DNA of 64,000 bases from Candidatus Moraniibacteriota bacterium (GCA_003507445.1 DNVR01000008.1:29083-93082), one strand, 5' to 3'; shown: positions 1,207 through 53,700, counted from the stretch's first letter. Made by a program: numbers and translations. Notes: generated by a model from the sequence alone, not told the origin.

Positions 1207-1226
1207 AAAATACTTTGAATATAAAA

Positions 1227-1257
1227 AACGCTCAACTCTTGTTGAGCGTTTTTTTTG
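1227..1257 (+). terminator. rho-independent terminator (hairpin AACGCTCAAC-TCTT-GTTGAGCGTT plus T-run)
   Basis: Perfect 10-bp stem followed by TTTTTTTT, directly after the stop of 457..1206. Confidence 0.7.
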
Positions 1258-1389
1258 TTTAATCATTGGAGATTCATAAGAAATATGCTATATTTTATTC
1301 ATAAATCAGTAATGGTTGTATTATACTAAAAGTTCGCATAACCTGCAACTTTCAGCACACTATCAAACATTAAGTTCGCATATAAACGA

Positions 1390-1591
1390 GTTCATCTGAA
1401 ATGTCGCTCCGCTACGCTCGCTCCATTTCAGATGAACGCGCGCGCCTGCCGTCGCTGTCATCTGCTGTGTTGCTTCTCCCTACGGTCGTGAGCAAACACA
1501 TCAGATAACAGCGCCTATCCGAAATTTCCCTCGCCCCGACTGCTGTCGGGACTCGTGAAACATCGGATCAGGCGCGCGCGTTCTGCGAAAT
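1390..1591. repeat. GC-rich structured repeat element, copy A (full core ~202 bp)
   Basis: Near-identical to 2791..2992. Contains nested stems: GTTCATCTGAAATG...CATTTCAGATGAAC, CGCGCGCGCCTG...CAGGCGCGCGCG and CCCGAC-TGCT-GTCGGG. GC ~58% in an AT-rich background. Confidence 0.8.
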
Positions 1592-1640
1592 AGCGAAAAA
1601 CATACCTTTATTAATAATTTTTTCAAGCCCTTTTGAAATA

Positions 1641-1676
1641 AAAAAATCCCCCGGTCAATCACCAGGGGACGGCAGT
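1641..1676 (-). terminator. rho-independent terminator for the minus-strand small ORF
   Basis: Hairpin CCCCTGGTGATTGACCGGGG followed by a T-run on the minus strand, immediately after the TGA stop at 1677..1679. Confidence 0.55.
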
Positions 1677-1843
1677 CATCTTTTCAGATTTTTCATCACT
1701 GCGTAGAATGAAGCTGCTGCTCCGCCAACCATTACAAGTGCGAGTAATCCGATTGCAATGGGCTCGTAAATCTTCGGGTAGGATATCGTGGAAACCGTAA
1801 AGAGTGCCGTCCCTACGCCAAAAACAAAAGCATCCCATTTCAT
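1677..1843 (-). CDS. small hydrophobic membrane protein (55 aa), not in supplied ORF track
   Basis: ATG preceded by AAGGAGG with 6-nt spacing. Translation MKWDAFVFGVGTALFTVSTISYPKIYEPIAIGLLALVMVGGAAASFYAVMKNLKR. Terminator downstream. Local GC ~50%. Confidence 0.45.
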
Positions 1844-2077
1844 AAAGAACCTCCTTGAGAGTTGATATTACAACACTTCAATGACTTCCTATCCTACACA
1901 CGAAGTATTGAAATGTCAAGTGGCAATATTTCAAAAGGGCTTGAAAAAATTGGGCTCAAAATAAGGAGTGTATGTTTTTCCGCTACATCGCAGAACAAGC
2001 AATATCTGGCTCAAAAGTCTTGCCTAATATATAATTAAATAAAGGAGTGCAAGATTTTTTCGACCCAAATTTGCCCT

Positions 2078-2192
2078 TCGCTACGCTCGATCAAACTTCA
2101 GATATTGCTAGACGTTCATCTGAAATTTTCCTCGCCCCGACTGCTGTCGGGACTCGTGAAACATCGGATCAGGCGCGCGCGTTAGATGAAAT
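2078..2192. repeat. GC-rich structured repeat element, copy B (internal-deletion derivative)
   Basis: Has the 5' arm (TTCGCTACGCTCGATCAAACTTCAGATATTGCTAGAC), GTTCATCTGAAAT, then jumps to the 3' part TTCCTCGCCCCGACTGCTGTCGGGACTCGTGAAACATCGGATCAGGCGCGCGCGTT. Confidence 0.7.
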
Positions 2193-2255
2193 ACCCAGAA
2201 ATTTCTTTTTTTATTTTAATATTTTTTTGCAATTCATAATTCTTAATACAAACCC

Positions 2256-2630
2256 ATGTTTAATCCAAATCGTCCACCATCAGAACAATTAGAAAATAAA
2301 ATGTTCACTATCGAGCTTAAGGATAATGAGTCCATTGTCGTTAAGGAAATGGAACCAGGTGTATTTAAAATAGTAGATAATAGTATAACAAAAAAAGATG
2401 AGCATCAGATGGCGGGCGAAACATTCATAGGCTTCGGAGAGTGGGATGATGAGGTTGAAGATTTAGATAGTCGTAGTAGCGATGCACGATATTTTGATAT
2501 GTCGGAACATCTCAGATGGGAAGATGTTGAGTTTATTGGTGATGATGAAATAAAGGCGCCATCACTAGATCGGCTGAAGCAAGCGTTGCAACACATAAAA
2601 ATACTTCCTTATAATCCCGAAGATATGTAA
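2256..2630 (+). CDS. hypothetical acidic protein
   Basis: 124-aa ORF between repeat copies. No recognisable motif. Confidence 0.3.
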   Translation: MFNPNRPPSEQLENKMFTIELKDNESIVVKEMEPGVFKIVDNSITKKDEHQMAGETFIGFGEWDDEVEDLDSRSSDARYFDMSEHLRWEDVEFIGDDEIKAPSLDRLKQALQHIKILPYNPEDM

Positions 2631-2748
2631 TTGCAAAATACATTAAGGAAAAAGAAATTTCTGGGTACATCACATAACAAGGCACATGCGGTTCAAAAAT
2701 TTTGCATCTTTTAAAATTAGAGGTGTGCAAAATTTTCTCTCCCAAATT

Positions 2749-2992
2749 TTTTTCGGCTATGCCTTCAGAAAAACTTCAGATATGCCTAACGTTCATCTGA
2801 AATGTCGCTCCGCTACGCTCGCTCCATTTCAGATGAACGCGCGCGCCTGCCGTCGCTGTCATCTGCTGTGTTGCTTCTCCCTACGGTCGTGAGCAAACAC
2901 ATCAGATAACAGCGCCTATCCGAAATTTCCCTCGCCCCGACTGCTGTCGGGACTCGTGAAACATCGGATCAGGCGCGCGCGTTGTGCGAAAT
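2749..2992. repeat. GC-rich structured repeat element, copy C (full, includes 5' arm)
   Basis: 2791..2992 nearly identical to 1390..1591. The 5' arm CCCAAATTTTTTTCGGCTATGCC...CTTCAGATATGCCTAAC is shared with copies B and D. Confidence 0.8.
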
Positions 2993-3443
2993 GCATGTTT
3001 TCCTTTTGGGCTAACGCCCTGGCTCAAAAAAGAATCCGATTTTGTTTTTTCTTTATTTTAAAGAGGGGTTAAAAAGGTGTTTTTCTGCTCTTTGGGGAGC
3101 AGAAAAATTATACAAAAATTATACATATTGATTTTATTTATAAGCCATGTTAACTTATTATTATCAGTTAAGAATTTGTTTGTAGATTATGTTCTTTGTA
3201 TCAATTGATGTTATCCCACAGAAAGGAGGAAACTGCTTATGCGGAAGCTTATTGTGCTGTGCGCAGTTGTAGCTCTGGCTTAGAGACCATACCGATTTGG
3301 CCGGCGTCGTCGCCCGGCCGCCAGAGAAACATTCGCCCCCGATTCAAGAAACGGAAGAACCGTCATGGTGTAACCGTGGATTCTTGAATTGGCATAACCG
3401 ATAAACCGCCAACAAATGGATATACCCCCAAGGAGGTAATACC

Positions 3444-3542
3444 ATGACGACCAGCCGTGGACGACCTGTTTTCGCTCAGATGATCAAGGGAGAAGAAGCT
3501 GCCGGCAAGGTGAAGAAAGCCGAAGGTACAGCACTGGTCTAG
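3444..3542 (+). CDS. micro-ORF (32 aa) with consensus SD inside a GC-rich island
   Basis: AAGGAGG-7nt-ATG. Encodes MTTSRGRPVFAQMIKGEEAAGKVKKAEGTALV. Strong terminator 80 nt downstream. GC ~55%. Confidence 0.25.
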   Translation: MTTSRGRPVFAQMIKGEEAAGKVKKAEGTALV

Positions 3543-3622
3543 GACCGTGAAGTGGCCGGCCTCGTCCTTCCGGCCAAAATGGGGAAAGATAATCGTCAAC
3601 CGGACATCATGTCCATAACCTG

Positions 3623-3658
3623 ACCGCTCTCGGCATTGCTGAGAGCGGGTCTTTTTTT
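3623..3658 (+). terminator. rho-independent terminator
   Basis: ACCGCTCTC-GGCATTGCT-GAGAGCGGGT followed by TTTTTTT. Confidence 0.7.
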
Positions 3659-3863
3659 ATTTGCCACCCCAATAAATACCACGTATAATTACCAATAAGG
3701 AGTATTGGCTCCAGGCCATTCACCCTTAGCCCCTCTTCCCAAAACAAAGACGAAATTCAATTAATTCATTACAGAAATGCTATTCCTCTGCTGAGGAATG
3801 AAAAGAAAAAACAAACATCGCACAACAACGAGTATCCGGTTTCGACTTTTTCGAAAGTCTTCA

Positions 3864-3948
3864 CCCAAATTTTTCTTTCGCTATGCTTGGTCAAACTTCA
3901 GATACTGCTAGACGTTCATCTGAAATGTCGCTCCGCTACGCGCGTTCG
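3864..3948. repeat. GC-rich structured repeat element, copy D (large internal deletion)
   Basis: 5' arm, GTTCATCTGAAATGTCGCTCCGCTACG, then CGCGTT. Shares its 5' arm with copies B and C. Confidence 0.6.
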
Positions 3949-4052
3949 GAAAAAAACTAAAAATTTCCTCTCTATTTTGAAAAGAATTTTTTGGCAATTT
4001 TGTTCGGTCGAACTAATTTTAAACAATTCAAAAAATTAATTTTAAAAACAAA

Positions 4053-4898
4053 ATGATGAGAAATAAAAAAGAAAATATTACCATAATTATAATTATCGTA
4101 ATTTTAACCTTATCCGCAGGAGTTATCGGCTGGATGCTAGCGAAGAACTCGCAAGATGTTTCAAAATCTAAGATAGTTAATAATTCAAAACTAATAAGCA
4201 CAACAGAACAGTCTTCGGAGCCGACAAATAAAATTTCTGAATCGTTACCTCCTGTTGATGAAATCGCTATTAACGATTTTTCCATAGCTATTGTCGCAAA
4301 CAATGATCTGCACTGGTCTAGTCGCGCAAATGTCAAATCAGATACTTCAATTCAATTTCGCTGGACAACAACAGGTGCGGATAGTTGCAATATAAGTGGC
4401 GGAAATTTATTTAATTCGAATACAAATTTAGCAACAAACGAAACAGGAATTAAAAAAGTTGCAGATGATTTTTCGAACGGAATCTACACATTAAAATGTG
4501 TAAGAAAATTAGATAATAAAACAGCAGAGGCAACTCCTATAATACTCAATGTCACACCAGCTAAAAAGTTAGTCATGTGCATGAAAAAATGCGGAAATGG
4601 CGGAATACCCATTCAGCAGAATATGAATCGCTTCTCTGGTGAAACAGTCCAAAAAGTCCGAGCGTGTTTTGGAAATTTTGCGTTGGATTGTCCAACACAG
4701 GATGTTACCAAAAATGCCGAATGGCTAACTAGTAATAATTCGATAATTACTTGGTCAAAGGATTATACGGTCGATGGAGAGAAGATAGTGGATGATGTGT
4801 ATCCCAATAAAACCCTGAAATCAGTCGGTGCAGGCAATGCTGAAGCCAGTGTTACATATTCTGGTTATTCATATGTTGTGAGGGTTGATGTGAAGTAG
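4053..4898 (+). CDS. hypothetical secreted/membrane-anchored Cys-containing protein
   Basis: 281-aa ORF with N-terminal signal-anchor ITIIIIIVILTLSAGVIGWML. No recognised catalytic motif. Confidence 0.5.
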   Translation: MMRNKKENITIIIIIVILTLSAGVIGWMLAKNSQDVSKSKIVNNSKLISTTEQSSEPTNKISESLPPVDEIAINDFSIAIVANNDLHWSSRANVKSDTSIQFRWTTTGADSCNISGGNLFNSNTNLATNETGIKKVADDFSNGIYTLKCVRKLDNKTAEATPIILNVTPAKKLVMCMKKCGNGGIPIQQNMNRFSGETVQKVRACFGNFALDCPTQDVTKNAEWLTSNNSIITWSKDYTVDGEKIVDDVYPNKTLKSVGAGNAEASVTYSGYSYVVRVDVK

Positions 4899-5083
4899 AC
4901 ATATTAAAAATAATTACTAAAAACTCTTTATTTTTAGGAAAGAAAAACTTTAGTTTCATTGCTTGAACCCGGCATATGTGGCTCGAAAAATTGACACTAT
5001 TAAAAAGTTCCAAATCAAGCATCATATTTGACGAAAATGAGTTAATTGGATATAATTGGATGTAGTTAATATATCCAAAAACT

Positions 5084-6172
5084 ATGGCTAATATAAAGCA
5101 AAAAGATATTAATATTGCAGACAAATTTTCAAAAAGGCTTGATAATATACCTGCGGAAATAATTTCAAAAATCGCCAAGATTGATGAATTAAAAGGCAGC
5201 TGGGTTTCTGGCACTCAACTAAGCTCGCAAGCACTGGGTCGTCTCAAGCGGTCTGTTTTGATAACCTCGACTGGAGCATCAACTCGTATTGAGGGTGTGC
5301 AACTTTCTGATGAGGATATTGAAAAAGTGATGCGCGGTATAAATATTCAAAAATTTGCTGACCGCGATAAGCAAGAAGTCAAGGGTTATTACGAACTTTT
5401 GGAAAATGTCTTTAATTCTTGGGGGAGTTTGAAATTCAACGAAAGTTCAATAAAACATTTCCACAAGGAGTTATTGAAATATTCAGAAAAAGACCAGGGT
5501 CATTTGGGTGATTACAAATTTGGAGAAAATAAAGTCGTCGCATACGATCATGAAGGAAAAGAGGTTGGGATAATTTTCAATCCCACTTCGCCATACCTCA
5601 CGCCCAAAGAAATGATTGAGCTTATTGAATCAACCAATTTTTTGCTTGCTGAAAAAAAATACCATCCGTTGCTAGTAATTGCAAATTTCCTGGTTGAATT
5701 TTTGGCAATTCATCCTTTTAAAGATGGAAATGGAAGAGTTTCTAGAGTTTTGACGAATTTATTGTTGCTTCAAAATGGATATCTGTATATGCCGTATGTT
5801 TCACATGAAAAACTAGTGGAAGACAATAAAACAGATTATTATCTTGCACTTAGGAGAAGTCAAAAGACTTTTCATTCAAAAAACGAAGACATTTCTCCAT
5901 GGTTAGAATTTTTCTTTACAATTTTATTACGACAATCACAATTTGCGATTGAATTATTGTCAAAAGAGAATATTGAAAAATTACTATCAGAAAGACAACT
6001 TGCAGTTTGGAAATTTTTTCAACAAGTTGAAATTACTGGAACAGGCGAGATTGTTGCTGGAACAAATATTCCGCGGCCAACCGTCAAGCAATCACTTGAG
6101 GTATTGTTGAAGTTGAAAAAAATAGAGAGAATAGGCCAAGGTAGAAGTGTGAGATATAAAAAGGTTGCTTAA
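5084..6172 (+). CDS. fic: Fic/DOC family protein (putative AMPylator) with N-terminal inhibitory helix and C-terminal winged-helix-like region
   Basis: Canonical Fic motif HPFKDGNGRVSRVL (HxFx(D/E)GNGRxxR). Upstream STRIEG matches the (S/T)xxxE(G/N) inhibitory motif of class II Fic proteins. Confidence 0.85.
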   Translation: MANIKQKDINIADKFSKRLDNIPAEIISKIAKIDELKGSWVSGTQLSSQALGRLKRSVLITSTGASTRIEGVQLSDEDIEKVMRGINIQKFADRDKQEVKGYYELLENVFNSWGSLKFNESSIKHFHKELLKYSEKDQGHLGDYKFGENKVVAYDHEGKEVGIIFNPTSPYLTPKEMIELIESTNFLLAEKKYHPLLVIANFLVEFLAIHPFKDGNGRVSRVLTNLLLLQNGYLYMPYVSHEKLVEDNKTDYYLALRRSQKTFHSKNEDISPWLEFFFTILLRQSQFAIELLSKENIEKLLSERQLAVWKFFQQVEITGTGEIVAGTNIPRPTVKQSLEVLLKLKKIERIGQGRSVRYKKVA

Positions 6173-6416
6173 GATTGAATAATAGAAAGAAAATTAAGAA
6201 GTTAGGTTCGCCAAAATACGTAAAAGTTTATATTTCTAAAAAGCGGAATCAAGGGATTTCGCTTTTTGTTATGGATTTTTTGGTGTATAATGAATGTATA
6301 AAATGATCAATGAGCAGTTTTCAATTTTCATATAAATTAATAATTTTCAATTTGAAAATTAAAAATATTGAAAATTAAATGAAAATTGTGAATTGTAAAT
6401 TGAAAATTGTTAATCT

Positions 6417-7337
6417 ATGTCTTGGATTTTTGTTGCAGTAAGCGCATATTTTTTGGGAGCCTTTGCGGTCCTGATGGACAAGTTTCTTTTGGGCTCCAAA
6501 AGAATTTCTTCTCCGCAAGTGTACACTTTTTACGTGGGAATTTTTGGATTGGGCGCATTTCTTTTTGCGCCGTTTGGTTTTGATGTTCCTTCTGCTTGGC
6601 AGATCACAATAAGTTTTATTTCGGGAGCAATTTATATTGGCGGAATTTTTGCGCTCAATCTTTCAATCAACAAAGCTGAAGCAAGCAGGGTAACACCTGT
6701 TGTTTTTTCGGTTGTGCCGATTGCGACATATTTGATATCCTTTGTTTTTAATGATGAAAAACTGACACTCATTCAGATTGGTGGAGTCGCATTGCTTATA
6801 ATCGGTGGACTGCTCATTTCTTTTGACTTGCCGCTTAAATTGAACAAGAGAAAATTTTTTGTTGGCTTTTATTTTTCTTGTTTGGCTGGAGTGCTTTTGG
6901 CAATTTCATATGTGATGTTTAAGATGGTTTATGTTGAGCAAACATTTTTAAATGGATTTATGTGGACCAGAGTTGGCGGTTTTGCGGCTGCACTTTTGCT
7001 TTTGATTGTTCCGACTTGGCGCAAGGCTATTTTTAAAAGTTTTTCTCATGCTAAAAAACCTTCAAAGGAACATATTGGCACGGGAGGAATATTCATTGCA
7101 AATAAGATCCTGGGCGGAACAAGTTCTATCTTGCTCAATAAGGCTTTTCAGTTGGGAAGTGTGACATTGGTCAATTCGATGGTATCGCTCCAATATGTGT
7201 TTGTGCTTATTCTCGTGGCAATAGCAGCCAAAAAACATCCGAAAGTTTTTGAAGAAAAGTTGTTGTTTTGGGATTGGGCTCAAAAAGTTGTTGCGATATT
7301 AATCATTGCAATAGGGATGGTTTTAATTTCAAGATAG
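6417..7337 (+). CDS. polytopic membrane protein, EamA/DMT-superfamily-like transporter
   Basis: 306 aa with ~10 hydrophobic helices in two halves. No ATP-binding motif. Confidence 0.45.
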   Translation: MSWIFVAVSAYFLGAFAVLMDKFLLGSKRISSPQVYTFYVGIFGLGAFLFAPFGFDVPSAWQITISFISGAIYIGGIFALNLSINKAEASRVTPVVFSVVPIATYLISFVFNDEKLTLIQIGGVALLIIGGLLISFDLPLKLNKRKFFVGFYFSCLAGVLLAISYVMFKMVYVEQTFLNGFMWTRVGGFAAALLLLIVPTWRKAIFKSFSHAKKPSKEHIGTGGIFIANKILGGTSSILLNKAFQLGSVTLVNSMVSLQYVFVLILVAIAAKKHPKVFEEKLLFWDWAQKVVAILIIAIGMVLISR

Positions 7338-7343
7338 AAATTC

Positions 7344-7462
7344 TGTCATTCCGGACTTGATCCGGAATCCAGGTTTTACGCTTAGTGATTTTTATTGCGA
7401 TAATTACAGTTTTTATACGGAATTGCAGAACCTGGATTCCCGCCTTCGCGGGAATGACAAAA
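7344..7462. repeat. MITE-like palindromic element, copy 1 (TIR TGTCATTCC...GGAATGACAA)
   Basis: ATTCCGGACTTGATCCGGAAT and ATTCCCGCCTTCGCGGGAAT palindromes (ATTCCC-N8-GGGAAT form). Second copy at 21297..21382. Confidence 0.75.
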
Positions 7463-7524
7463 GGTTAATTTGTAAAAAATACTCTCGCTCCTAAATTTTA
7501 TAAATTAAATAATATATTATAAAA

Positions 7525-8598
7525 ATGAAAAAAGAAAAAACCAGTTCAAGCAAAATAAGCTCGGCATTGGCTGGGTTGTGGCGCGCTATCTCTTGGACTT
7601 TGGCTGTGATTGTGATTGTGTTTATCCTCTTGTTTATATATGTGAATTTGCCAGTTAAGGCAAACACTGATGATGCAAAAATCGGTGTGACATTTTCATA
7701 TATTTACGCTGAGCAAATCGGGCTTGATTGGAAACAGGCATATTTGGCAATGTTAAATGATCTTAAAATTAAGCATATAAGATTGCCAATATATTGGGAC
7801 AGGGTTGAGGGTAAAGAAGGTGAATATGATTTTTCGCATATTGATTGGCAGTTGGAACAAGCACGAAATGCTGGTGCGGAAATAATTTTGGTTATTGGTC
7901 AAAAGGTTCCACGTTGGCCAGAATGTTATGTGCCAAAATGGGTGGGAGAAGATCCAAGCAATCTTCCTGCGGACAGATTAAAAGAAAAATTGTTAACCTT
8001 TGAAGAAGTTGTTATCAACAGGTATAAGGATAATCATCCCGAAATTGTTCGTTGGCAAGTTGAGAATGAACCGTTTTTGAATTTCGGAATTTGCTCTAAA
8101 GTTGACACTGAACTTTTGGACAGTGAACTTGTTAAGGTGAGAGAACTTGATCCCAGTCGTCCAATTGTGGTTACTGACAGTGGGGAACTTAGTTTGTGGG
8201 TAAATGCTGCCAAAAGAGCTGATGTTTTTGGAACCACAATGTATCGAGAAGTTTATAGTCAAAAAATGGGTCATTGGCGTTATCCAATAGGACCAAATTT
8301 TTTCAAAATAAAACAGTGGATGATTGAGGCTTTTGCTGATCAGGAAAATGCTATTGTGATTGAGCTTCAAGGCGAGCCGTGGGTGGCAGGATGGACAATT
8401 GATGCACCTGTTGAAGTTCAACTTGCTTCAATGAATGCTGAAATTTTGAAGGAAAATATAGAATTTGCCAAAAAAACAGGAATGAACGAAATTTATATTT
8501 GGGGTGTGGAATGGTGGTATTATATGAAAACAGTTCAGAATAATCCAACTCTCTGGGAAACAGTCAAGGCATTTGAAATTCAAAACAATGCAATATAA
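7525..8598 (+). CDS. putative glycoside hydrolase (TIM-barrel clan GH-A-like), membrane-anchored
   Basis: N-terminal TM helix. VENEPF motif typical of the GH5/clan A acid-base catalyst; candidate nucleophile in IELQGEPW. Confidence 0.4.
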   Translation: MKKEKTSSSKISSALAGLWRAISWTLAVIVIVFILLFIYVNLPVKANTDDAKIGVTFSYIYAEQIGLDWKQAYLAMLNDLKIKHIRLPIYWDRVEGKEGEYDFSHIDWQLEQARNAGAEIILVIGQKVPRWPECYVPKWVGEDPSNLPADRLKEKLLTFEEVVINRYKDNHPEIVRWQVENEPFLNFGICSKVDTELLDSELVKVRELDPSRPIVVTDSGELSLWVNAAKRADVFGTTMYREVYSQKMGHWRYPIGPNFFKIKQWMIEAFADQENAIVIELQGEPWVAGWTIDAPVEVQLASMNAEILKENIEFAKKTGMNEIYIWGVEWWYYMKTVQNNPTLWETVKAFEIQNNAI

Positions 8599-12185: not shown

Positions 12186-12374
12186 ATGAATACTGTAATC
12201 ATTTCCGTGCTTGTTATTCTCATTATCGTTGTCCTTACTGTGGCAATAGGTTTGATTCGCTTTACGTTCAATGATTTTTTGGAAAAAGTTGTCAAAAAAA
12301 CCTTGTGGCTCTGGCTTCCTTTTCATGCGCTTAAAAGATTGAGCGGAGAGTTTCGAAAAAAATATATGAAATAA
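12186..12374 (+). CDS. small hydrophobic protein (62 aa)
   Basis: Single TM-like segment VIISVLVILIIVVLTVAIGLI. Ends at a bidirectional terminator. Confidence 0.3.
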   Translation: MNTVIISVLVILIIVVLTVAIGLIRFTFNDFLEKVVKKTLWLWLPFHALKRLSGEFRKKYMK

Positions 12375-12435
12375 AATCGCTGATAAAGCGCGGATAATAA
12401 ACGCTGATATACACGCTGATTATATACGGTCATAA

Positions 12436-12466
12436 AAATAAAAACCCTCTTGTTGAGGGTTTTTAT
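12436..12466. terminator. bidirectional rho-independent terminator between convergent genes
   Basis: AAAACCCTC-TTGTT-GAGGGTTTT with A-run upstream and T-run downstream. Flanked by an outer IR CGCTGATATACACGCTGA/TCAGCGTGTATATCAGCG. Confidence 0.7.
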
Positions 12467-12513
12467 GGTTTCTGCGTAAAATCAGCGTATTTTTTTCAGC
12501 GTGTATATCAGCG

Positions 12514-12858
12514 TTATTTCACTTTTTCCATAAACTTTGCAAAGATTGCTGGGTTTTCGGCAGCCATTTGTGAAAGCACTTTGCGGTCAGTTTCAATGTT
12601 TTTTGATTTCAAGATTGCAATAAATTTGCTATATGTAATGTCGAACAATCGAACTGCATTGTTAAGTCGCAAAATCCAAAGAGCTCTGTTTGTTCGCTTT
12701 TTGGCTCGACGATCACGATGAGCGTATTTTCCAGCTTTGATAACCGCTTCTTTGGCAGCAACATAATTTTTGCTACGACGCCATCTGAAACCTTTGGCCA
12801 TTTCTAATACATTTTTTCTACGTTTTGATGCGGCTACACCGCGCTTTACTCTGCTCAT
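12514..12858 (-). CDS. rplT: 50S ribosomal protein L20
   Basis: MSRVKRGVAASKRRKNVLEMAKGFRWRRSKNYVAAKEAVIKAGKYAHRDRRAKKRTNRALWILRLN matches the L20 family. The track ORF start lies upstream, so the start is placed at the MSRVKRG methionine. Confidence 0.9.
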   Translation of the reverse strand: MSRVKRGVAASKRRKNVLEMAKGFRWRRSKNYVAAKEAVIKAGKYAHRDRRAKKRTNRALWILRLNNAVRLFDITYSKFIAILKSKNIETDRKVLSQMAAENPAIFAKFMEKVK

Positions 12859-13024
12859 TTTGTCTATGAGGTACGAGTAGCTACAAAATGAAGCACCCCG
12901 CACCAATTCTCTATTAAATTCTTAAATTATATAAATACTGAGCCGTAGGCGTTTCCGTGCATAAATCCCTCAACTAGTACCGGTAGTTTTTGGAATTTGG
13001 TGCGGGGGTAGGCCTCCTCTCTAA

Positions 13025-13231
13025 TTATTTTCCAATTGAATATGGAAGAGCTGCAACAATATTCTTTTCGTCAGCTCGAAACATACGTTTATCTTTTTTC
13101 TTTGCGCGTCCTTCAGCGCCTGTTTCTTTTGAGTTGTAGTGGTTTTGTCCTGTTGCTCTGCGAATCACTTTACCATTTTTGGTTATTTTAACTTTCTTTA
13201 CTACTGATTTCTTCGTTTTCATCTTAGGCAT
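13025..13231 (-). CDS. rpmI: 50S ribosomal protein L35
   Basis: MPKMKTKKSVVKKVKITKNGKVIRR is the typical L35 N-terminus. The upstream part of the track ORF is encoded by a heptamer repeat and is not protein. Confidence 0.85.
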   Translation of the reverse strand: MPKMKTKKSVVKKVKITKNGKVIRRATGQNHYNSKETGAEGRAKKKDKRMFRADEKNIVAALPYSIGK

Positions 13232-13238
13232 CTCTTTG

Positions 13239-13350
13239 TTGAATTTCGAATTTCGAATTTCGAATTTCGATTGAATTGTGAATTGATTCAAAATTTAATC
13301 ATTGAAATATTGGAAATTGATTCAAAATTTAAAATTTAAAATTTAAAATT
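13239..13350. repeat. heptamer-array element: (TCGAATT)x4 - ~50-bp spacer - (AAAATTT)x4
   Basis: Fills the infC stop to rpmI start interval exactly. Same architecture as the in-frame insertion in recG (50867..50967). Confidence 0.8.
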
Positions 13351-13909
13351 ATTCTGTTATTGTTGTTGGGGCGATGATCACATTGAATCCACCGGGGAAT
13401 CTTTTGATTGGATCTTCAATTTTATATGGAACAGTGATGCCGGTTATAAAATCTTGTAAATTCTTTCTGGCTAAATCTTGATGAGCTTTTTCTCTTCCGC
13501 GCAGCACAATGTCAATTTTTACTTTGTCACCTTGTTTGAGAAATTTTTCTGATTGAGCTCTTTTGAATTCAACATCGTGAGTGTCAGTTCGAAGTCCCAA
13601 TCTGACTCCCTTTATTTCAACTTTCTTTTGCTTGGCTTTTGCAAGTCGCAATTGCTTGGATTGTTGATAAAGGTGTTTGCCATAATCCATTATGCGGCAT
13701 ACCGGCGGTTGTGCCTTTGGAGAAACTTCAACCAAGTCGAGCATTCTTTCTCTGGCAAGCGCCATAGCATCAAGTGTTGACATTTCTCCCAGCTGTTTTC
13801 CTTCGTCATCAATCACAAATACCACGGGAACTCGAATTCCATCATTGATGCGCAATTGCGCCGGCCCAGTCTGCTGCTTTGGTTTAAATCTAAATCGCTT
13901 TCTAATAAT
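13349..13909 (-). CDS. infC: translation initiation factor IF-3, probable non-ATG (ATT/ATA) start
   Basis: RINDGIRVPVVFVIDDEGKQLGEMS and PPVCRIMDYGK match IF-3. The frame stays open upstream of the track's TTG codon to an in-frame stop at 13934..13936, and the conserved N-terminal KRFRFKPKQQ region lies upstream. Confidence 0.8.
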   Translation of the reverse strand: MIRKRFRFKPKQQTGPAQLRINDGIRVPVVFVIDDEGKQLGEMSTLDAMALARERMLDLVEVSPKAQPPVCRIMDYGKHLYQQSKQLRLAKAKQKKVEIKGVRLGLRTDTHDVEFKRAQSEKFLKQGDKVKIDIVLRGREKAHQDLARKNLQDFITGITVPYKIEDPIKRFPGGFNVIIAPTTITE

Positions 13910-14040
13910 CGTGGTGGTCTTGCTTATTCCGCTTTATGTAAAAGTGGAAAAGGACGACATTAACTTTAATTTTTTCATATAACATATAGCATATAACATG
14001 AAACACAAAACAAAAATGTTATATGCTACATGTTACATGT

Positions 14041-14452
14041 TGTATATATGGTGGAGTTGATGGGAATTGCACCCATGTCCAAAATTGACAATCCAAAATC
14101 CTCTACAAGTTTAGTTTATTTTTTCTCACCGAAGCGAGTGCGACTAATTAGAGTAGAGAATAAACAAAACCTCTAAATGCCGTTTTCAGAATTATTTCGC
14201 ATTTTGTGTCCAAAAAACCACAAAACACTATTCTCATGTTTGACACCGAGGTCTGCTTACGAGAAATCAGCAGTTCGATGGCTTCGAGCCTAAGCTAAAG
14301 CAGGTGAAAAACCAGCAAATGCTTGCGCAAATGTAGCTTTCGCCTTTGATATGAAGTTTGCACTTATATCTTCGCCACACTTTTTACGATACAGCAGCGG
14401 TGATCGACTTGCATATTTTGAAAAGTACAACCTGTCGAAACTAAACAACCCC
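14041..14452 (-). ncRNA. ssrA: tmRNA (ssrA)
   Basis: Minus-strand 5' GGGGTTGTTTAGTTTCGACAGG matches the tmRNA 5' consensus. 3' end reads ...GGACATGGGTGCAATTCCCATCAACTCCACCA with encoded CCA. Acceptor pairs 7/7 including the G3-U wobble. Adjacent to smpB. Confidence 0.75.
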
Positions 14453-14629
14453 CGGCCGCAACACTCTGTAAGGGTTGAGTGCGGGGAATGTCAATTTATT
14501 TTCGTGTGCGGAATTTCCAAATCCCAATTTCCAATTTCCAATAAAAATTTAAATTACAAAATGTCCAATAATAAACAATACCTTTGGCATTAAAAGTTGG
14601 AAATTTTGTTAGAAATTAGATATTGGTAA

Positions 14630-15100
14630 TTAGGAATTTTTCATGGCTCTTCCTATTTCTCTCTCACTCTCTCTTTTGGTGATGTCTGAGCGCTTGTCGT
14701 GAGCCTTTTTTCCGCGCGCTACAGCGAATTCCAACTTAACTAGGCGTCTCTTAGTATACACACGAAGAGGTACTAATGTCAAGCCTTTTACGTGTAATTT
14801 TCCAATCAGAGACTTGATTTCTGACTTTTTGACCAAAAGCTTGCGAGAGCGTGTCGGATCGTAGGCTATTTTAAAGCCAGCGAAGGGATAATGTGAGATG
14901 GTGGCGTTAGTAAGGTATAATTCTGAATCGTGAATCGTGACAAAACTGCCCTTGAGGCTTATGTGCCCCATTTTTGTTGATTTTGTTTCCGCCCCAGACA
15001 GCACTAAACCAGCCTCATATTTGTCGAGAAGCTCGTAGTCAAAATGCGCTCTTTTGTTGGTTGCTAATGTTGGCATATTCCTATAATGCCTTAAAATCAA
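14630..15100 (-). CDS. smpB: SsrA-binding protein SmpB
   Basis: 156 aa; LVLSGAETKSTKMGHISLKGSFV and YDPTRSRKLLVKKSEI typical of SmpB. Confidence 0.85.
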   Translation of the reverse strand: MILRHYRNMPTLATNKRAHFDYELLDKYEAGLVLSGAETKSTKMGHISLKGSFVTIHDSELYLTNATISHYPFAGFKIAYDPTRSRKLLVKKSEIKSLIGKLHVKGLTLVPLRVYTKRRLVKLEFAVARGKKAHDKRSDITKRESEREIGRAMKNS

Positions 15101-15196
15101 ACAAAAATCAACAGACTATAGGATAAATTTTTCATTTCTCTTCTTTTATGTTAAAATAATAAAAGAAATATAAAATTTGTTAAATAAAATAAAAAT

Positions 15197-15589
15197 ATGG
15201 AACAAAAAATAAAAACAGTGCTGATAGTTGAAGATGAAGAAGATCTTCGTGAGATATATTCAAGAGCTCTTACGGTAAATGGCTACGAAGTTTTGCAAGC
15301 AACCAATGGCATTGAAGCGCTGGAGTGGCTTGAAAGAAAATCTGAAAAAATAGATTTAATATTGCTGGATATTGTGATGCCTGGTATGGATGGATTTGAG
15401 GCTTTGGAAAAAATCAAGAAAAATGAGAAATATGAAAAAATTCCAGTGTTGGTCTCTACTAATCTGGACAACGATGATGACAGACGACAAGCATTAGGAA
15501 TGGGTGCAAAGGAATATTTTGTGAAATCTCAGCACACTCCTTCTGAGCTTGTGGCTAAGGTAAGTGCGGTTGTGAAAGAAAGAGAATAG
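15197..15589 (+). CDS. single-domain response regulator (CheY-like receiver)
   Basis: VLIVEDEEDLREIY, LLDIVMPGMDG and the conserved K at YFVK. Paralog of 63044..63427. Confidence 0.8.
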   Translation: MEQKIKTVLIVEDEEDLREIYSRALTVNGYEVLQATNGIEALEWLERKSEKIDLILLDIVMPGMDGFEALEKIKKNEKYEKIPVLVSTNLDNDDDRRQALGMGAKEYFVKSQHTPSELVAKVSAVVKERE

Positions 15590-15735: not shown

Positions 15736-17121
15736 ATGACTAAAAAAAGCCAAAAAATTGAATTGCTTGCGCCGGCGGGCTTGTCCGCCAAAGCCATTAA
15801 AAATACTGATAATTTGAAAAGTGTAAAAATTTTGAAAAAAAGAGAAGATAAAATTGAATTACTCGCGCCGGCGGGGAGTCCGGAAAAATTGAAATATGCC
15901 ATCAAATATGGGGCAGATGCTGTTTATTGTGGAGTCCCAGATGTTTCAATGCGCGCTCGCGTGAACACTTTTACTGAAAAGGATCTTTTGGAAGCGGCAA
16001 AATTTGTTCACAGTGAGGGCAAAAAAATATTTGTAACTTTGAATATTTATGCGCATAATTATCATTTGTCAAAAATAGAAGCGCATTTAAAATTTTTGAA
16101 AAAAGTTAATGTCGATGCTGTTATTGTGGCTGATCCGGGAGTGATTATGCTGGTCAAAAAGCATTTGCCAAAAGTTGCCATTCATCTTAGCACTCAAGCC
16201 AACACGACAAACTGGCAAGCAGCAAAATTTTGGTATGACCTTGGCGTGACAAGAATCGTTTTAGCCAGAGAAGTTACACTGGAGGATATTACTGAAATAA
16301 AAAAACATGTACCAAAATTGGAGTTGGAATATTTTGTGCACGGAGCAATGTGTATGAGTTATTCCGGACGTTGCATTTTGAGCAAATGGATGAGCAACAA
16401 AAGTGCAAACCTTGGAGATTGCACGCAACCGTGTAGGTGGGGATACAGGCAAAAGTCGAAAGTCGAAAGTTTAAAGTCTAAAGAAATAGAAGAATATAAA
16501 ACAATGGAGGTTGAGGAAGTTCAGAGTGGGCGGCCGGTTTTGTTGGAGGAGGATTCTCACGGAACATATTTTTTCAACAGCAAGGATTTGAACTTGCTTT
16601 CGCATTTGCAAGAACTTCGTAGCGCGGGCGTGACGTCGTTTAAAATAGAGGGGCGCAATAAGAGTGTGTTTTATGTGTCCAACGTTTGTAGGGCCTATAG
16701 GAGCGTTCTGGATGCAATCGAGACCAAAAAAACAGCTCCGGAGGCCAGAAAAATTCAAAAATGGGCAGCAAAAGAATTGGATAAATTGGCAAATCGTGGC
16801 TATACCAAGGGTTTTTTGCTTGGAAACGAGCCTGAGCACGGTTTTTCCGGTCAACAAGGGGGCAATGAGTTTCAATTTGTGGGAGAAATCCTAGAAGTTA
16901 ATGGCAGCGAACTGACTGCAAAAATTCATAATGTTGTAAAAGCTGGAGACAATTTGGAGATTATAGATAAGAAAAAAAACATTGCCATTAAAATTTTGAA
17001 GATTTACAATCAAGACAGAGAAGAAGTTTCCTCGGCGCACGGCGGTCACGGCAAATTGTATTTTTTGAAAGTAAACAAAAAAAATATCCAGCCGTATTCA
17101 TTGCTGAGAAAAATAATTTAA
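15736..17121 (+). CDS. U32-family peptidase (collagenase-like / RlhA-TrhP family)
   Basis: ELLAPAGSPEKLKYAIKYGADAVY N-terminus and HGAMCMSYSGRC motif. N-terminal 32 aa are an in-frame direct duplication (IELLAPAG twice). Confidence 0.75.
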   Translation: MTKKSQKIELLAPAGLSAKAIKNTDNLKSVKILKKREDKIELLAPAGSPEKLKYAIKYGADAVYCGVPDVSMRARVNTFTEKDLLEAAKFVHSEGKKIFVTLNIYAHNYHLSKIEAHLKFLKKVNVDAVIVADPGVIMLVKKHLPKVAIHLSTQANTTNWQAAKFWYDLGVTRIVLAREVTLEDITEIKKHVPKLELEYFVHGAMCMSYSGRCILSKWMSNKSANLGDCTQPCRWGYRQKSKVESLKSKEIEEYKTMEVEEVQSGRPVLLEEDSHGTYFFNSKDLNLLSHLQELRSAGVTSFKIEGRNKSVFYVSNVCRAYRSVLDAIETKKTAPEARKIQKWAAKELDKLANRGYTKGFLLGNEPEHGFSGQQGGNEFQFVGEILEVNGSELTAKIHNVVKAGDNLEIIDKKKNIAIKILKIYNQDREEVSSAHGGHGKLYFLKVNKKNIQPYSLLRKII

Positions 17122-28882: not shown

Positions 28883-29031
28883 GAACTGCAACCCCAGTTA
28901 AATACTGCGGAGTACCGCAATTTAACGGGGTAAACATACAACATACAACAAAATACAGAATACAAAACATATAACATATAGCATGTAACAAATAGATACT
29001 AAATACTAAATACTAAATACTAAAAAAACTT

Positions 29032-29736: not shown

Positions 29737-29785
29737 GGGTTAATAATTTCTAATTTCCAATTTCTAATTTCCAACAAAAAATCAA

Positions 29786-30166
29786 ATGTCAAATGATAAA
29801 AGGATATATGATTTGGAGGAACGTACGGAAGTATTTGGTGAGAATATTATTGAATTTTGCAAAATAATTCCAAAAACAGCATTAACAACCGTATTGACGA
29901 ATCAACTTTTGCGATCAGGGACTAGCGTGGGAGCAAATTATTGCGAAGCGGATTGTGCTGAATCAAGAAAAGATTTTGAACATAAATTGGGAATTTGTAA
30001 AAAGGAAGCCAAGGAAACAAAACATTGGCTTAGGATGATTGCAAAAGCTGCACCTGAAATTAAAAGTGAAGCGCAAATATTATGGAAAGAATCAAATGAG
30101 CTGCAGTTAATATTTATTGCGATTATTAATAAGTCAAAAATAAATGAAGCAGAGAAGAAAAGATAA
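29786..30166 (+). CDS. four-helix-bundle protein (23S rRNA intervening-sequence protein family)
   Basis: LRSGTSVGANYCEA ... KDFEHKLGICKKEAKETKHWL matches the conserved core of the family. Confidence 0.65.
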   Translation: MSNDKRIYDLEERTEVFGENIIEFCKIIPKTALTTVLTNQLLRSGTSVGANYCEADCAESRKDFEHKLGICKKEAKETKHWLRMIAKAAPEIKSEAQILWKESNELQLIFIAIINKSKINEAEKKR

Positions 30167-30241
30167 GTTTGGAAATTATATATTGAAAATTTTGTTAGAA
30201 ATTGGATATTAGAAATTAGTAATTAAACGAAGTATTCTCTG

Positions 30242-49815: not shown

Positions 49816-52038
49816 TTATTCAAGGTGGATATTTTGTTGGAATTTGTTGAGCTCTTTTTGTAGGAGTGGGTAGTCTTTCAAGTCGGGGCTGTTTTGCAAA
49901 GTTTGCTCGGCGTAGTCGTGGGCGATTTCAATCAGTTTTACGTTCGACAAATGCTCCATTGCGATGTCGGGAAGACCTGATTGGCGCGTGCCGAGAAATT
50001 CGCCGGGACCACGGAGTTTCAAATCTTCTTCTGCAATTGCAAAACCGCTGGATGTTTTCTCCATTGCACTAAGACGTGATTTTGCTTTGACGGTTTTGCT
50101 GCCAGTGAAAAGAAAACAATATGATTGCTTGTCTGATCTGCCGACTCGTCCACGAAACTGATGAAGTTGAGAAAGGCCAAATCTTTCCGTATCCTCGATC
50201 ATAATCACAGTGGCATTTGGAATATCAATACCAACTTCTACCACGCTGGTGGCAACCAAAATGTCATATTTTTTATCTTTAAAATCGGCCATCACTTGCT
50301 CTTTTTCGCCAGCTTTCAATTTGCCGTGCAGAAGTCCCAATTTTAAATCTGGAAAAATTTCCCGTGACAGTCGTGTATGCTCTTGGGTGGCAGCTTTAAG
50401 TTCTGTTAATTTTTCTGATTCTTCCACTAGAGGGAAAATGATGAAAGCCTGATGGCCCTTGGAAATTTCTTTGCGCACAAAATCATACACATCTTTTCTT
50501 TTGCTTGGCAAAATAATTTCAGTGAGAATAGGCTTTCGATTTTTGGGCATTTCATCCAACACTGAAATATCCAGATTTCCAAAAAAAGCTAAGGTCAATG
50601 TTCGGGGAATCGGAGTTGCTGTCATCGTGAGCAGGTGGGGAATTTTTCCTGGCAAGCCGTCATTAATATCAGCAATCTGCTGTTGCAAAAAAGCACGTTG
50701 AGCCACGCCAAAGCGATGTTGCTCATCGATGATTATTAAAGCTAAATTTTTAAATTTTATATCTTTCTGAATAAGCGCGTGAGTACCTATTACAATGTTA
50801 ATATTGCCAGACACTAGTTCCGATAGTAATTTTTTTCTAGAAATATCCTCTTTTTTTTCTGCTGATAATTTTGAATTTTGAATTTTGAATTTTGATTGAA
50901 TTTTTAATGTTTTAATTTTTAAACATTCATCATTAAGATTTGATTCGAAATTCGAAATTCGAAATTCTGATTTATTAATCAAATGATAGGAATTCGTTAA
51001 AAGTCCTACAGTTATGTCTTGCTTTGAAAATATTTTTGATATACTTTCAAAATGTTGCTTGGCCAAAACTTCTGTTGGAGCCATAATGGAAACCTGAAAA
51101 CCAGCATTAATGGCTGACAAGCTCGCCATTGCAGCCACAATTGTTTTGCCACTTCCCACATCGCCATTAAGCAGACGATTCATTGGAAGAGGTTTTTCCA
51201 AATCTTTCAAAATTTGAAATGCAGCTTTGCGTTGAGCATCAGTGAGTGTAAAAGGAAGTGACTCGACGAAATATTTGGTCAGTGTTTCATTGAAAGCAAT
51301 TGAAACAGCATTTTGTTTGTCCCATGAAATTTTGACTCGCTGAGTTGCAAGTTGTACCAAAAACATTTGCTGAAAAGCAAAACGTTTTTGCGCAAGTTCA
51401 AATTCTTTGAGCGTTTTTGGGAAGTGTAAAGATTTTACAGCTTCACTCAAGATTGGCAGATGCAAACCCTTCAAAATATTTTCTGGAATTGGGTCAACAA
51501 GCGCATCGGCATATTTGATCATATTTTGCATTTGCCAGCGAATCCATTTTGAAGTGAGGCCTTCTGTTTCTGGATATATTGGAACAAGCCGTCCTGTGTT
51601 GGTTGGGGTGCGCGAAGAAAGTTCCCAAGCGGGATTGGAAAAAAACATTCCTTTTGCATCTTGCGAGATTTTTCCAGCTAGTCTCACGCCTTTGCCGGCA
51701 GTGAGCGAATCACTGACATATGGTTGGTTAAACCACACAGCTCTCACAGTGCCAGTTTCATCACTCACAAAGCACTCTGTGATCATCATCTTCTTTTTCC
51801 AAGTGCGCACCAATTTGCTTTGTACAACTTCTCCCATCACAGTGGCCGTTTCTCCTTCTTGAAGATTTTCAATCAAAACCCGCTCGGAATAATCTTCATA
51901 GCGAAAAGGGAAGTGCAGCAAAAAATCCTCCACAGTTTCAATGTTGAGTTTTTTTAAAATCGCGCCATATTTCATCCCGATACGCGGCAGTTTTTCCAAT
52001 TTCATCTTCAAAAAATCCATACCTAAATTATAACTCAA
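49816..52038 (-). CDS. recG: ATP-dependent DNA helicase RecG, carrying an in-frame repeat insertion
   Basis: Walker A GDVGSGKT, DEQH box IIDEQHRFGV, motif VI QFRGRVGR, N-terminal wedge/OB region. Inserted segment NFESNLNDECLKIKTLKIQSKFKIQNSKL encoded by 50867..50967. Confidence 0.85.
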   Translation of the reverse strand: MSYNLGMDFLKMKLEKLPRIGMKYGAILKKLNIETVEDFLLHFPFRYEDYSERVLIENLQEGETATVMGEVVQSKLVRTWKKKMMITECFVSDETGTVRAVWFNQPYVSDSLTAGKGVRLAGKISQDAKGMFFSNPAWELSSRTPTNTGRLVPIYPETEGLTSKWIRWQMQNMIKYADALVDPIPENILKGLHLPILSEAVKSLHFPKTLKEFELAQKRFAFQQMFLVQLATQRVKISWDKQNAVSIAFNETLTKYFVESLPFTLTDAQRKAAFQILKDLEKPLPMNRLLNGDVGSGKTIVAAMASLSAINAGFQVSIMAPTEVLAKQHFESISKIFSKQDITVGLLTNSYHLINKSEFRISNFESNLNDECLKIKTLKIQSKFKIQNSKLSAEKKEDISRKKLLSELVSGNINIVIGTHALIQKDIKFKNLALIIIDEQHRFGVAQRAFLQQQIADINDGLPGKIPHLLTMTATPIPRTLTLAFFGNLDISVLDEMPKNRKPILTEIILPSKRKDVYDFVRKEISKGHQAFIIFPLVEESEKLTELKAATQEHTRLSREIFPDLKLGLLHGKLKAGEKEQVMADFKDKKYDILVATSVVEVGIDIPNATVIMIEDTERFGLSQLHQFRGRVGRSDKQSYCFLFTGSKTVKAKSRLSAMEKTSSGFAIAEEDLKLRGPGEFLGTRQSGLPDIAMEHLSNVKLIEIAHDYAEQTLQNSPDLKDYPLLQKELNKFQQNIHLE
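50867..50967. repeat. heptamer-array element inserted in-frame within recG
   Basis: (AATTTTG)x4 - spacer - (CGAAATT)x3 on the + strand. On the coding strand, same architecture as 13239..13350. Confidence 0.75.
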
Positions 52039-52895: not shown

Positions 52896-52992
52896 ACATA
52901 ACACGTATCATAGAACATGGAACAAAAAAAATCAATAGATTACGCACTTATTACATTTATGCTCTATGTTTTATGCTATATGCTATATGACC

Positions 52993-53700
52993 TTAGATAT
53001 GTAAAACACGTTCAATTGCATCAATAAGTCCGGGATCCTGTTTGATTTCTGGAATATTGCGCATCAAAATTTCTCGCATTTTCACTGGGTCTTCGTTGGC
53101 GATGGGGATGTGAACAAAGGGAAGCATAGAAGCCTTGGTATGAAGGCTGATAGTTTTGGTGTGATTTGGATCATAAAAAATCCAAAAGGAATGAATATTT
53201 TCATATAAATACATTTCCTTGTCAGCAGTCACACCTTTGGATGTTATCGAGAATGTGATCACGCGCGGATCTTTTTGCAAATAAATATAACCGACAATGC
53301 CAAGCAAAATGAAGGTAATTGCCATAATTGGACTGTTTGTAGCCAGCGCATATCCAATCATTGCAACAATAAAAAGCCCAAAAATAATATACCAACGGGC
53401 AGATTTTTCGTATACTTCAAATTCCGGAGCTTTCCACTGATGGAAAATTTCATCCAAATTGCTTTCTTGGTCGGAATCATTTTGCTGTCTTGTTGGCGCT
53501 TCTTCTGTCTGTCTGCGCGTAGCAAAATTCTGTGATTCCACTGGCGTGTTCGCCGAATTAAGCAGCTTGGAATTTCTAAGATCAAATGACATATTTCTTG
53601 CCCCGTGAAATTCTGCTAGCAGGCAGACATATTTCACTGGGGTGTATTTCTTTATTAAATAGTCCTGGCTCAATTCTAGCATATTTACCCACACACTCAA
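52993..53700 (-). CDS. membrane protein with two TM helices and C-terminal PH-like (YdbS/YdbT, DUF304-like) domain
   Basis: Hairpin-like TM pair WYIIFGLFIVAMIGYALATNSPIMAITFILLGIVGYIYL followed by a ~110-aa soluble domain. Confidence 0.35.
   Translation of the reverse strand: MSVWVNMLELSQDYLIKKYTPVKYVCLLAEFHGARNMSFDLRNSKLLNSANTPVESQNFATRRQTEEAPTRQQNDSDQESNLDEIFHQWKAPEFEVYEKSARWYIIFGLFIVAMIGYALATNSPIMAITFILLGIVGYIYLQKDPRVITFSITSKGVTADKEMYLYENIHSFWIFYDPNHTKTISLHTKASMLPFVHIPIANEDPVKMREILMRNIPEIKQDPGLIDAIERVLHI

Follow-up and report, generated by a model that had tools for sequence, protein, structure and literature searches.

The window, that is, the whole 64,000-nucleotide stretch of DNA from Candidatus Moraniibacteriota bacterium analyzed here (GCA_003507445.1 DNVR01000008.1:29083-93082), has about 37% G+C, and its only Rfam matches at gathering thresholds are a tmRNA (14049-14452) and three tRNAs; no rRNA was found in it by Rfam. 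On the minus strand, infC (13349..13855), encoding IF-3 with the Pfam domains IF3_N and IF3_C, lies upstream of rpmI (13025..13231), whose product L35 begins MPKMKTKK. Between these genes, a repeat element at 13239..13353, to which no strand is assigned, consists of (GAATTTC)x4, a core, and (AAAATTT)x4. Sequence reading and Tandem Repeats Finder place the 5' array, (GAATTTC)x4.3, at 13241-13270 with 100% matches, and Tandem Repeats Finder places the 3' array, (ATTTAAA)x4.4 or (AAAATTT)x4, at 13320-13350 with 95% matches, leaving a core of 49 nt, GATTGAATTG...GAAATTGATTC. The infC stop codon is found at 13349-13351 (minus strand). With the rpmI start codon at 13229-13231, the array coordinates mean that the element fills the spacer: its last unit overlaps the infC stop, and only the AAAGAG ribosome-binding site remains outside it. 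A preliminary description of this DNA had reported two heptamer arrays around an AT-rich middle in the infC-rpmI spacer, and Tandem Repeats Finder bears out the arrays.

This spacer copy has stop codons in all six frames, and its folding does not differ significantly from that of shuffled sequences on either strand (z about 0). A scan of 12300-15200 found no promoter or terminator in it on the sense strand, and in the same scan its stems, which are A/U-only, did not qualify as an intrinsic terminator. The next spacer, between rpmI and rplT (12856-13024), is 166 nt long; its fold, at -40 kcal/mol, includes a G+C-rich stem formed over a long range. This spacer gave no Rfam match and may be a regulatory leader for L20.

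The same architecture recurs within recG (49816..52038, minus strand; 740-aa ORF, or 734 aa and 49816..52020 from the annotated start). The RecG product contains the Pfam domains RecG_wedge, DEAD, Helicase_C, and RecG_dom3_C, matches the structure 1GM5 with an E value of 7e-152, and is 100% identical to P0001, “DNA helicase RecG [Candidatus Moranbacteria bacterium]”. The recG copy lies at 50864..50969 on the minus strand, in frame, at about residues 357-392. Read on the mRNA strand it comprises (GAATTTC)x3, a 52-nt core, GAATCAAATCTTAATGATGAATGTTTAAAAATTAAAACATTAAAAATTCAATC, and (AAAATTC)x4, and sequence reading with Tandem Repeats Finder resolved its arrays at 50867-50967 as (AATTTTG)x4 and (ATTCGAA)x3.6. 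It is translated without a stop as ...SEFRISNFESNLNDECLKIKTLKIQSKFKIQNSKLS..., the window recG encoding the peptide ISNFESNLNDECLK, and exactly one of its six frames is open; the unbroken frame agrees with what had been noticed before. This copy folds at -35 kcal/mol on the plus strand (z -6.6) and at -17.3 kcal/mol on the mRNA strand (z -2.7), and inspection of flanks showed ATCAG on both sides of it, a feature of that copy only.

An alignment of RecG with orthologs, which the preliminary description had called for, revealed a 35-residue loop where 1GM5 has 7 residues: residues 349-400 of the window protein correspond to only 7 residues (453-459) of T. maritima RecG, and the insert site comes after the strand that follows helicase motif Ia and before the next helix. 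An AlphaFold2 model built with 33 homologues gave residues 357-395 a pLDDT of about 24 and no secondary structure, with flanking blocks at pLDDT 87-88, and the insert is accordingly predicted by the model to be an unstructured loop.

That the infC-rpmI and recG elements are homologous, as had been proposed, is supported by their shared arrays, by their cores, and by copies elsewhere that bridge the two (z 6.6-8.5). With the arrays left out, the recG and infC-rpmI cores align with a z score of 4.7 over shuffles, the recG core reaches z 8.5 against an intergenic copy in locus L090, and the infC-rpmI core z 7.1 against a copy in L011, values based on mononucleotide shuffles and hence somewhat generous for low-complexity DNA. 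The first copy at a non-orthologous locus was detected by blastn of L011 against the window, where the smpB-ssrA spacer of L011 matched the recG element, and a pattern search added copies in the recG-pgm spacers of L090 and L007, in two spacers of L010, and in two of L013. The window's own recG-pgm spacer, 54 nt long, has no copy.

Ten copies of 100-115 nt, found at non-orthologous loci in 7 genomes, share a single architecture and a mean column identity of 72%. Each starts with a 5' (AATTTYR)x3-4 array, continues with an inner inverted repeat (GAWTSAAATC..AATGA / TCATT..GATTTGATTC) that encloses a small central hairpin, and ends with a 3' (RAAATTN)x3-4 array. Between the arms, (AATTTYR)n and (RAAATTN)n, 5-7 of the 7 positions of a unit are complementary, and the family consensus folds weakly (-1.2 kcal/mol). 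An nhmmer profile of the ten copies matched the infC-rpmI copy with an E value of 2e-19 and the recG copy with 8e-19. The search for further heptamer elements suggested earlier returned about 20 loci, non-orthologous, in 495 kb of related Moranbacteria/CPR DNA, including full-length matches outside the training set at L011 9776-9883, L008 17491-17603, and L011 4852-4957 and 5948-6064. Non-CPR DNA amounting to 1.31 Mb, which likewise contains heptamer arrays, gave no match to the profile. At L010 6208-6376, the core of a family copy is split by two tandem 30-nt repeats (CATTTTTGCTYCARGCTTATCCCTTGGGGA), giving a nested arrangement.

The flanks of the window, L011, L006, and L090 copies showed no consistent target-site duplication, and a scan of window ORFs turned up no transposase, RAYT, or other gene for mobility. 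Four independent assemblies (L001-L004) match the window at 100% over 10-22 kb, arrays included, so the arrays are not an assembly accident, and an assembly artefact as their origin was rejected. The exact RecG protein is present in 12 contigs, and the four retrieved loci come from four different samples; aquifer samples in which this genome occurs include 3300025010 and 3300001242. As all same-species contigs (L001-L004) are identical, no ongoing activity is seen.

The RecG insert site is hypervariable among Moranbacteria RecGs, and all of its occupants are in frame. RecGs from L006 and L008 (83% and 61% identity to the window protein) have the same element as the window, so the recG copy did not arise by recent insertion in a single strain. 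The site holds a minimal palindrome and is 27 aa shorter in L005 (92% identity; GAATTTCGAAATTCGAAATT), a degenerate array in L007 (90%), a single array of unrelated units (ACAACTG...) with no partner in L090 (89%), a different array hairpin in L091 (76%; CAGTCATCGGTAAT... / ...TGATGACAGATCTC), and a palindrome of another family in L092 (76%; GTCATTCCGGGCTTGACCC...GGGAATGACA), which is also found at 7335-7465 in the window. Several more distant RecGs (62-74% identity) are without an insert. As to the earlier question whether other strains lack the recG insertion, distant Moranbacteria RecGs do, and the same-species contigs are all identical to the window. The preliminary description had also reckoned with convergent low complexity, in which close relatives would encode the same RecG residues with non-repetitive DNA; in fact, wherever a relative shares the residues, it shares the repetitive DNA too.

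Another family of palindromic repeats, GTCATTCCGGACTTGATCCGGAATCC...GGATTCCCGCCTTCGCGGGAATGAC, was observed at window 7335-7465 and at about 11050-11140 in L092, where it is read in frame as CHSGLDPES...HFHGNDK at the same RecG site; the RecGs P0071 and P0091 have similar CHSE(R/H)S inserts.

Conservation of the insert exceeds that of its host gene. The recG genes of the window and L006 share 77% identity over their whole length and 55% at third codon positions, and the 106-nt insert (L006 5419-5528) is 87% identical, with 95% identity over its central 41 nt, yet the loop it encodes is predicted to be disordered and varies in other relatives. The element may be under constraint as DNA or as RNA; otherwise the site would have to be refreshed from a conserved pool of elements.

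RecG is not the only protein affected. The window has an in-frame array (AAAGTCG/AAAGTTT/AAAGTCT; 16441..16485, plus strand) in the gene of a U32 peptidase (ORF 15736..17121), read as QKSKVESLKSK. The site follows CRWGYR, and its content differs in all four close genomes: (AAAGTCG)n in the window, (AATTTCC)x4 in L010 (peptidase locus at 6417-7838; TNFQFPISNFQT), a full family element in L011 (FQFPISNFQTSPNDS...QIQNSKP), and (GAAACGY)n in L013. With an in-frame full copy in this second protein in L011, the in-frame behavior likened earlier to that of Rickettsia palindromic elements (RPEs) is extended beyond RecG. Of the six frames, exactly one is open in coding copies and none in intergenic copies. 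A heptamer-like stretch at 58321-58349, in a ComF-like gene, was considered as a further array member and dismissed as a chance match, since the residues it encodes are conserved in relatives.

Orthologous spacers show the same rapid replacement of units. The infC-rpmI spacer is built of AATTTYN units in the window, of (CAACTAA/CAACAAA)...(GTTGTAG/GTTGTAT) in L010 (InfC 96% identical), where the 5' array enters the end of infC, of AGCTAAT-like units in L011 (90%), and of octamer arrays in L013 (79%). It measures only 19 nt, without arrays, in L012 and L014 (65% and 55%). The smpB-ssrA and ssrA-infC spacers likewise keep the architecture with the sequence replaced. An ORF-less hairpin of the same super-family occupies the window's smpB-ssrA spacer (14510..14638, minus strand; arms CTAATTTCTAACAAAATTTCCAA / TTGGAAATTGGAAATT), folds at -34.8 kcal/mol (z -3.9), and matches the family profile over its full length (E 9e-5). 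Directly 3' of the tmRNA lies another heptamer hairpin (CATATAA/ATGTTAC; 13971..14047, minus strand; -29.8 kcal/mol, z -5.7), and this spacer holds an AATTTYN-family copy in L011 (9776-9883) and L013 (9765-9869).

Further heptamer structures are spread over the window. A hairpin of AACCTAC/AACTATC ... GTTGATA units at 41464..41575 (plus strand; -40.5 kcal/mol, z -7.8) follows a 3703-aa ORF, and its unit family is also found in the infC-rpmI spacer of L010. An inverted repeat (TTTTCAA ... AATTGAA/AATTGTG; 6302..6418, plus strand; z -3.2) lies upstream of an EamA gene, a run of AACATAC, AACATAT, and ATACTAAx4 without an inverted partner (28932..29030, plus strand) lies upstream of a TPR gene, and a TTTATGC/TATATGC array (52956..52993, no strand assigned) lies between tRNA-Arg and the ORF 52993..53700. 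Inverted arrays with a 12-13-nt unit (ACGCTGATATA...) surround a canonical bidirectional terminator between convergent genes at 12378-12520, which indicates that array-armed hairpins are not restricted to period 7.

Repeats of other kinds were also seen in the window. In the 2.8-kb region 1207-4050, no ORF exceeds 124 aa and the G+C content is higher than background. The region contains direct repeats of 84-202 nt spaced 600-1400 nt apart (1390-1591 equals 2791-2992), among them a unit of 84 nt, with the hairpin CCCGACTGCTGTCGGG, at 1517, 2118, and 2918. The wider 5-kb segment, 1206-6260, which includes a Fic gene, is absent from L010, where the junction has a hairpin-family copy. Two giant surface-protein ORFs (3703 and 1406 aa) are 80% identical over their C-terminal 470 nt, and about 115 nt after their stops (41345-41460 and 47100-47215) are nearly identical.

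Period 7 stands out in the window, where 9 arrays reach at least 18/21 self-matches as compared with 0-1 at each of the other periods from 4 to 14; block shuffles gave none at this threshold. A looser threshold put 12 of 17 arrays in the non-coding 16% of the window. The excess is shared with unrelated bacteria, since the control loci L018-L089, fetched with InfC and mostly from Acidobacteria/Terriglobia, have 60 period-7 arrays in 1.31 Mb, at most 2 arrays at other periods from 4 to 13, and 16 at period 14, the double of 7. Heptamer hairpins with units AGTTTCN, GTCGNNN, and CAGCANT were observed in infC-rpmI-rplT spacers of high-G+C control loci, for example at L021 10506-10586 and in the rpmI-rplT spacers of L019, L037, and L039. 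Mrazek 2007, in the account given by PMC4679880 and PMC4692102, describes heptanucleotides as the most abundant class of long simple sequence repeats (SSRs) in most prokaryotes and attributes them to slippage. Heptamer repeats are also reported to differ among close relatives and, in some cases, to form inverted pairs or to lie within ORFs (PMC4679880, PMC4692102). There is thus nothing new in heptamer arrays by themselves, which are a known repeat class and present in unrelated control loci, and as they are common in bacteria, including the Acidobacteria controls, part of the resemblance between loci may reflect a shared AT-rich mutational process.

One heptamer structure in the window encloses a gene. 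At 29738..30232 (plus strand), an ORF of 126 aa (29786..30166) with the Pfam domain 23S_rRNA_IVP (PF05635; E 1.6e-14) lies between inverted heptamer arrays, (AATTTCT/AATTTCC)x4 at 29744-29771 and TTAGAAA/TTGGATA at 30195-30225. The cassette folds at -104.6 kcal/mol with its termini paired in a terminal stem of about 34 bp. Compared by eye, its arms share CTAATTTCTAACAAAATTTYCAA / TTGGAAATTNGAAATT with the hairpin at 14510-14638, and the arms of the heptamer elements resemble those of PF05635 cassettes. Metagenome loci with homologues at 62-79% identity were collected, 80 in all, 77 of them with analyzable flanks. A period-7 array was present in the flank of 49 of the 77, as opposed to none for periods 5, 6, 8, and 9, and in 57 of the 77 the pairing of the two flanks is stronger by more than 8 kcal/mol than that of shuffled flanks. 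The cassettes occupy 23-25 neighborhoods among the 31 loci with complete flanks, as judged by blastn and tblastx. Among 54 PF05635 stems there was no sense-strand stability bias (25 vs 28, p 0.46), so maintenance at the RNA level is not supported; strand asymmetries of the window hairpins have mixed signs. The preliminary description was right about the element and overlooked the heptamer arrays that pervade the window, their membership of a repeat class already known from bacteria, and the link to PF05635 arms. Full-text literature searches returned no report linking PF05635 genes to heptamer arrays in CPR genomes.

RPEs are palindromes of about 100-150 bp which occur between genes and in frame in unrelated housekeeping genes, at positions tolerated by the fold, and for which no transposase is known (PMC10969869). 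The Moranbacteria element resembles them as a dispersed palindrome of 100-115 nt with many copies, in frame in RecG and the U32 peptidase. It differs in its host, a free-living or episymbiotic member of the CPR and not Rickettsia, in having tandem heptamer arrays with rapid turnover as arms, in the different element types that occupy one protein site across relatives, and in its link to PF05635 cassettes. We therefore call it RPE-like in behavior and do not file it as an RPE, the likeness being one of size, dispersal, and in-frame insertion.

Intervening sequences (IVSs) of rRNA, which are known with S23p/PF05635 ORFs from Coxiella and Leptospira, offer a second comparison. In 23S rRNA they sit in helix 25 or helix 45. 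The window cassette (29738-30232) resembles them in that its termini are complementary and its loop contains a PF05635 ORF, but the cassettes lie between protein genes and not in 23S rRNA, and family copies lie between or within protein genes. The PF05635 ORF is present at 29786..30166 and lacking from the infC-rpmI and recG copies, and the terminal stem of about 20-30 bp expected of an IVS is found in the cassette, the two focal copies pairing weakly on the mRNA strand. The IVS of Coxiella burnetii contains an S23p ORF, RNase III cuts its terminal stem of 28 bp, and the stem region has tandem heptamers (GACAGAT) whose number varies between strains (PMC4990558).

With heptanucleotide SSRs (Mrazek 2007; cyanobacterial STRR; Xanthomonas GGGAATC; Beggiatoaceae TAACTGA), as described in PMC4692102 and PMC4679880, the arrays have in common the tandem 7-nt units and the mostly intergenic location, and the period-7 excess, mainly intergenic, is indeed present here. 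Unlike free-standing microsatellites, the arrays form two arms of a discrete element with a conserved core and a constant length. MITEs and REPINs are similarly short, non-coding, hairpin-forming, mostly intergenic, and numerous, and they share terminal inverted repeats with the family. The family differs from them in that no consistent target-site duplication and no cognate transposase or RAYT was found, and the only ORF-bearing relative is the PF05635 cassette. Under strict definitions, the element is neither a MITE nor an rRNA IVS.

Three other explanations have to be weighed against dispersal. The arrays might be microsatellites that arise in situ by local heptamer slippage, acquire inverted partners by template switching, and resemble each other through convergent low complexity, with nothing moving. 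The abundance of heptanucleotides among long SSRs in most prokaryotes (PMC4679880, PMC4692102) fits this explanation, as do the many inverted pairs among the 60 control arrays, the unrelated units at orthologous sites of close relatives, and the partnerless arrays at 28932-29030 and in recG of L090. It does not account for non-array cores that are similar across loci and genomes, for full copies, uniform in length, at many loci unrelated to one another and at none in the controls, for a central 41 nt that is 95% identical though synonymous sites are near saturation, or for one arm family of PF05635 cassettes in 23-25 neighborhoods. Microsatellites alone are an unlikely source. A similarly doubtful explanation is selection by the host for cis-acting hairpins, whereby the smpB-ssrA-infC-rpmI-rplT spacers would need stem-loops for processing, 3'-end protection, or cistron insulation, the recG copy being a by-product. 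Hairpins with heptamer arrays of any sequence would serve, so that units could drift under a fixed architecture. The window, L010, L011, and L013 all have an array hairpin of differing units in the smpB-ssrA, ssrA-infC, and infC-rpmI spacers, several of the hairpins form stable folds (z -3.9 to -7.8), variable positions in the units covary to some extent, and the arms are perfectly mirrored in many PF05635 loci, such as L099 and L116. Yet more distant relatives manage with infC-rpmI spacers of 19 nt and no hairpin, the window's own infC-rpmI copy folds no better than shuffles and is neither an intrinsic terminator nor a promoter, the sense strand has no stability bias, and copies lie within coding sequence, where an mRNA-cleaving stem would be harmful.

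The heptamer tracts of recG could also be a contingency locus, i.e., a frameshifting switch for phase-variable recombination and repair, since a gain or loss of 7 nt would truncate RecG. The 7-nt units are not multiples of three and the arrays vary between species, which fits such a switch. The exact RecG in 12 contigs, the 100% identity of the four retrieved loci over 10-22 kb, the frame kept in all relatives, and arrays of three to four units, which are short for efficient slippage, make a switch highly improbable.

The reading we prefer, with a probability of about 0.6, is that the infC-rpmI and recG sequences are both copies of a dispersed Moranbacteria palindrome, the ORF-less counterpart of PF05635 cassettes, which persists where the DNA is unconstrained. 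Copies of this palindrome would last only in intergenic spacers and in surface loops of proteins, where those free of stops and compatible in length would survive and be translated as a disordered excursion. The arms would change rapidly as 7-nt units are gained or lost and as each arm is homogenized, which may be why orthologous sites hold different units in close relatives. The comparisons establish that the copies form a dispersed family, lie in frame in proteins, replace their units rapidly, and have arms similar to those of PF05635 cassettes. Mobility of the element is something we infer: it may spread by copying or conversion at the DNA level onto hairpins or arrays that already exist, and such a preference could explain why the same sites are re-occupied. 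By analogy with IVSs, well-paired transcripts might be cut by RNase III, or the hairpins might act in processing or stability.

A bolder and rather improbable extension of the dispersed-palindrome reading is that the PF05635 protein recognizes 7-nt arrays and promotes their copying or conversion into existing hairpins, across a broad class of heptamer hairpins. PF05635 proteins are not known to move DNA, and no DNA-processing activity is known for this S23p/Avd-like four-helix-bundle protein. If true, such a partnership would account for rRNA IVSs and part of the bacterial heptamer-repeat excess, as well as for the re-occupation of loops and a recG copy that outlasts synonymous sites.

Unexplained insertions in proteins and rRNAs are a recognized peculiarity of the CPR. 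Full-text literature searches found no description of a heptamer-armed element with a conserved core, in frame in proteins, in the CPR, in keeping with the earlier expectation that the element would be new for this lineage. The phenomenon known from RPEs, selfish palindromes that end up as protein loops, would thereby extend from obligate intracellular Rickettsia to the Candidate Phyla Radiation. In practice, CPR proteins look more divergent than they are because of such inserts, which also give rise to spurious small ORFs and can mislead annotation and alignment. PF05635 genes gain a defined DNA context, inverted heptamer arrays, which makes their role testable, and the family offers a structured case for why bacteria favor 7-nt tandem repeats.
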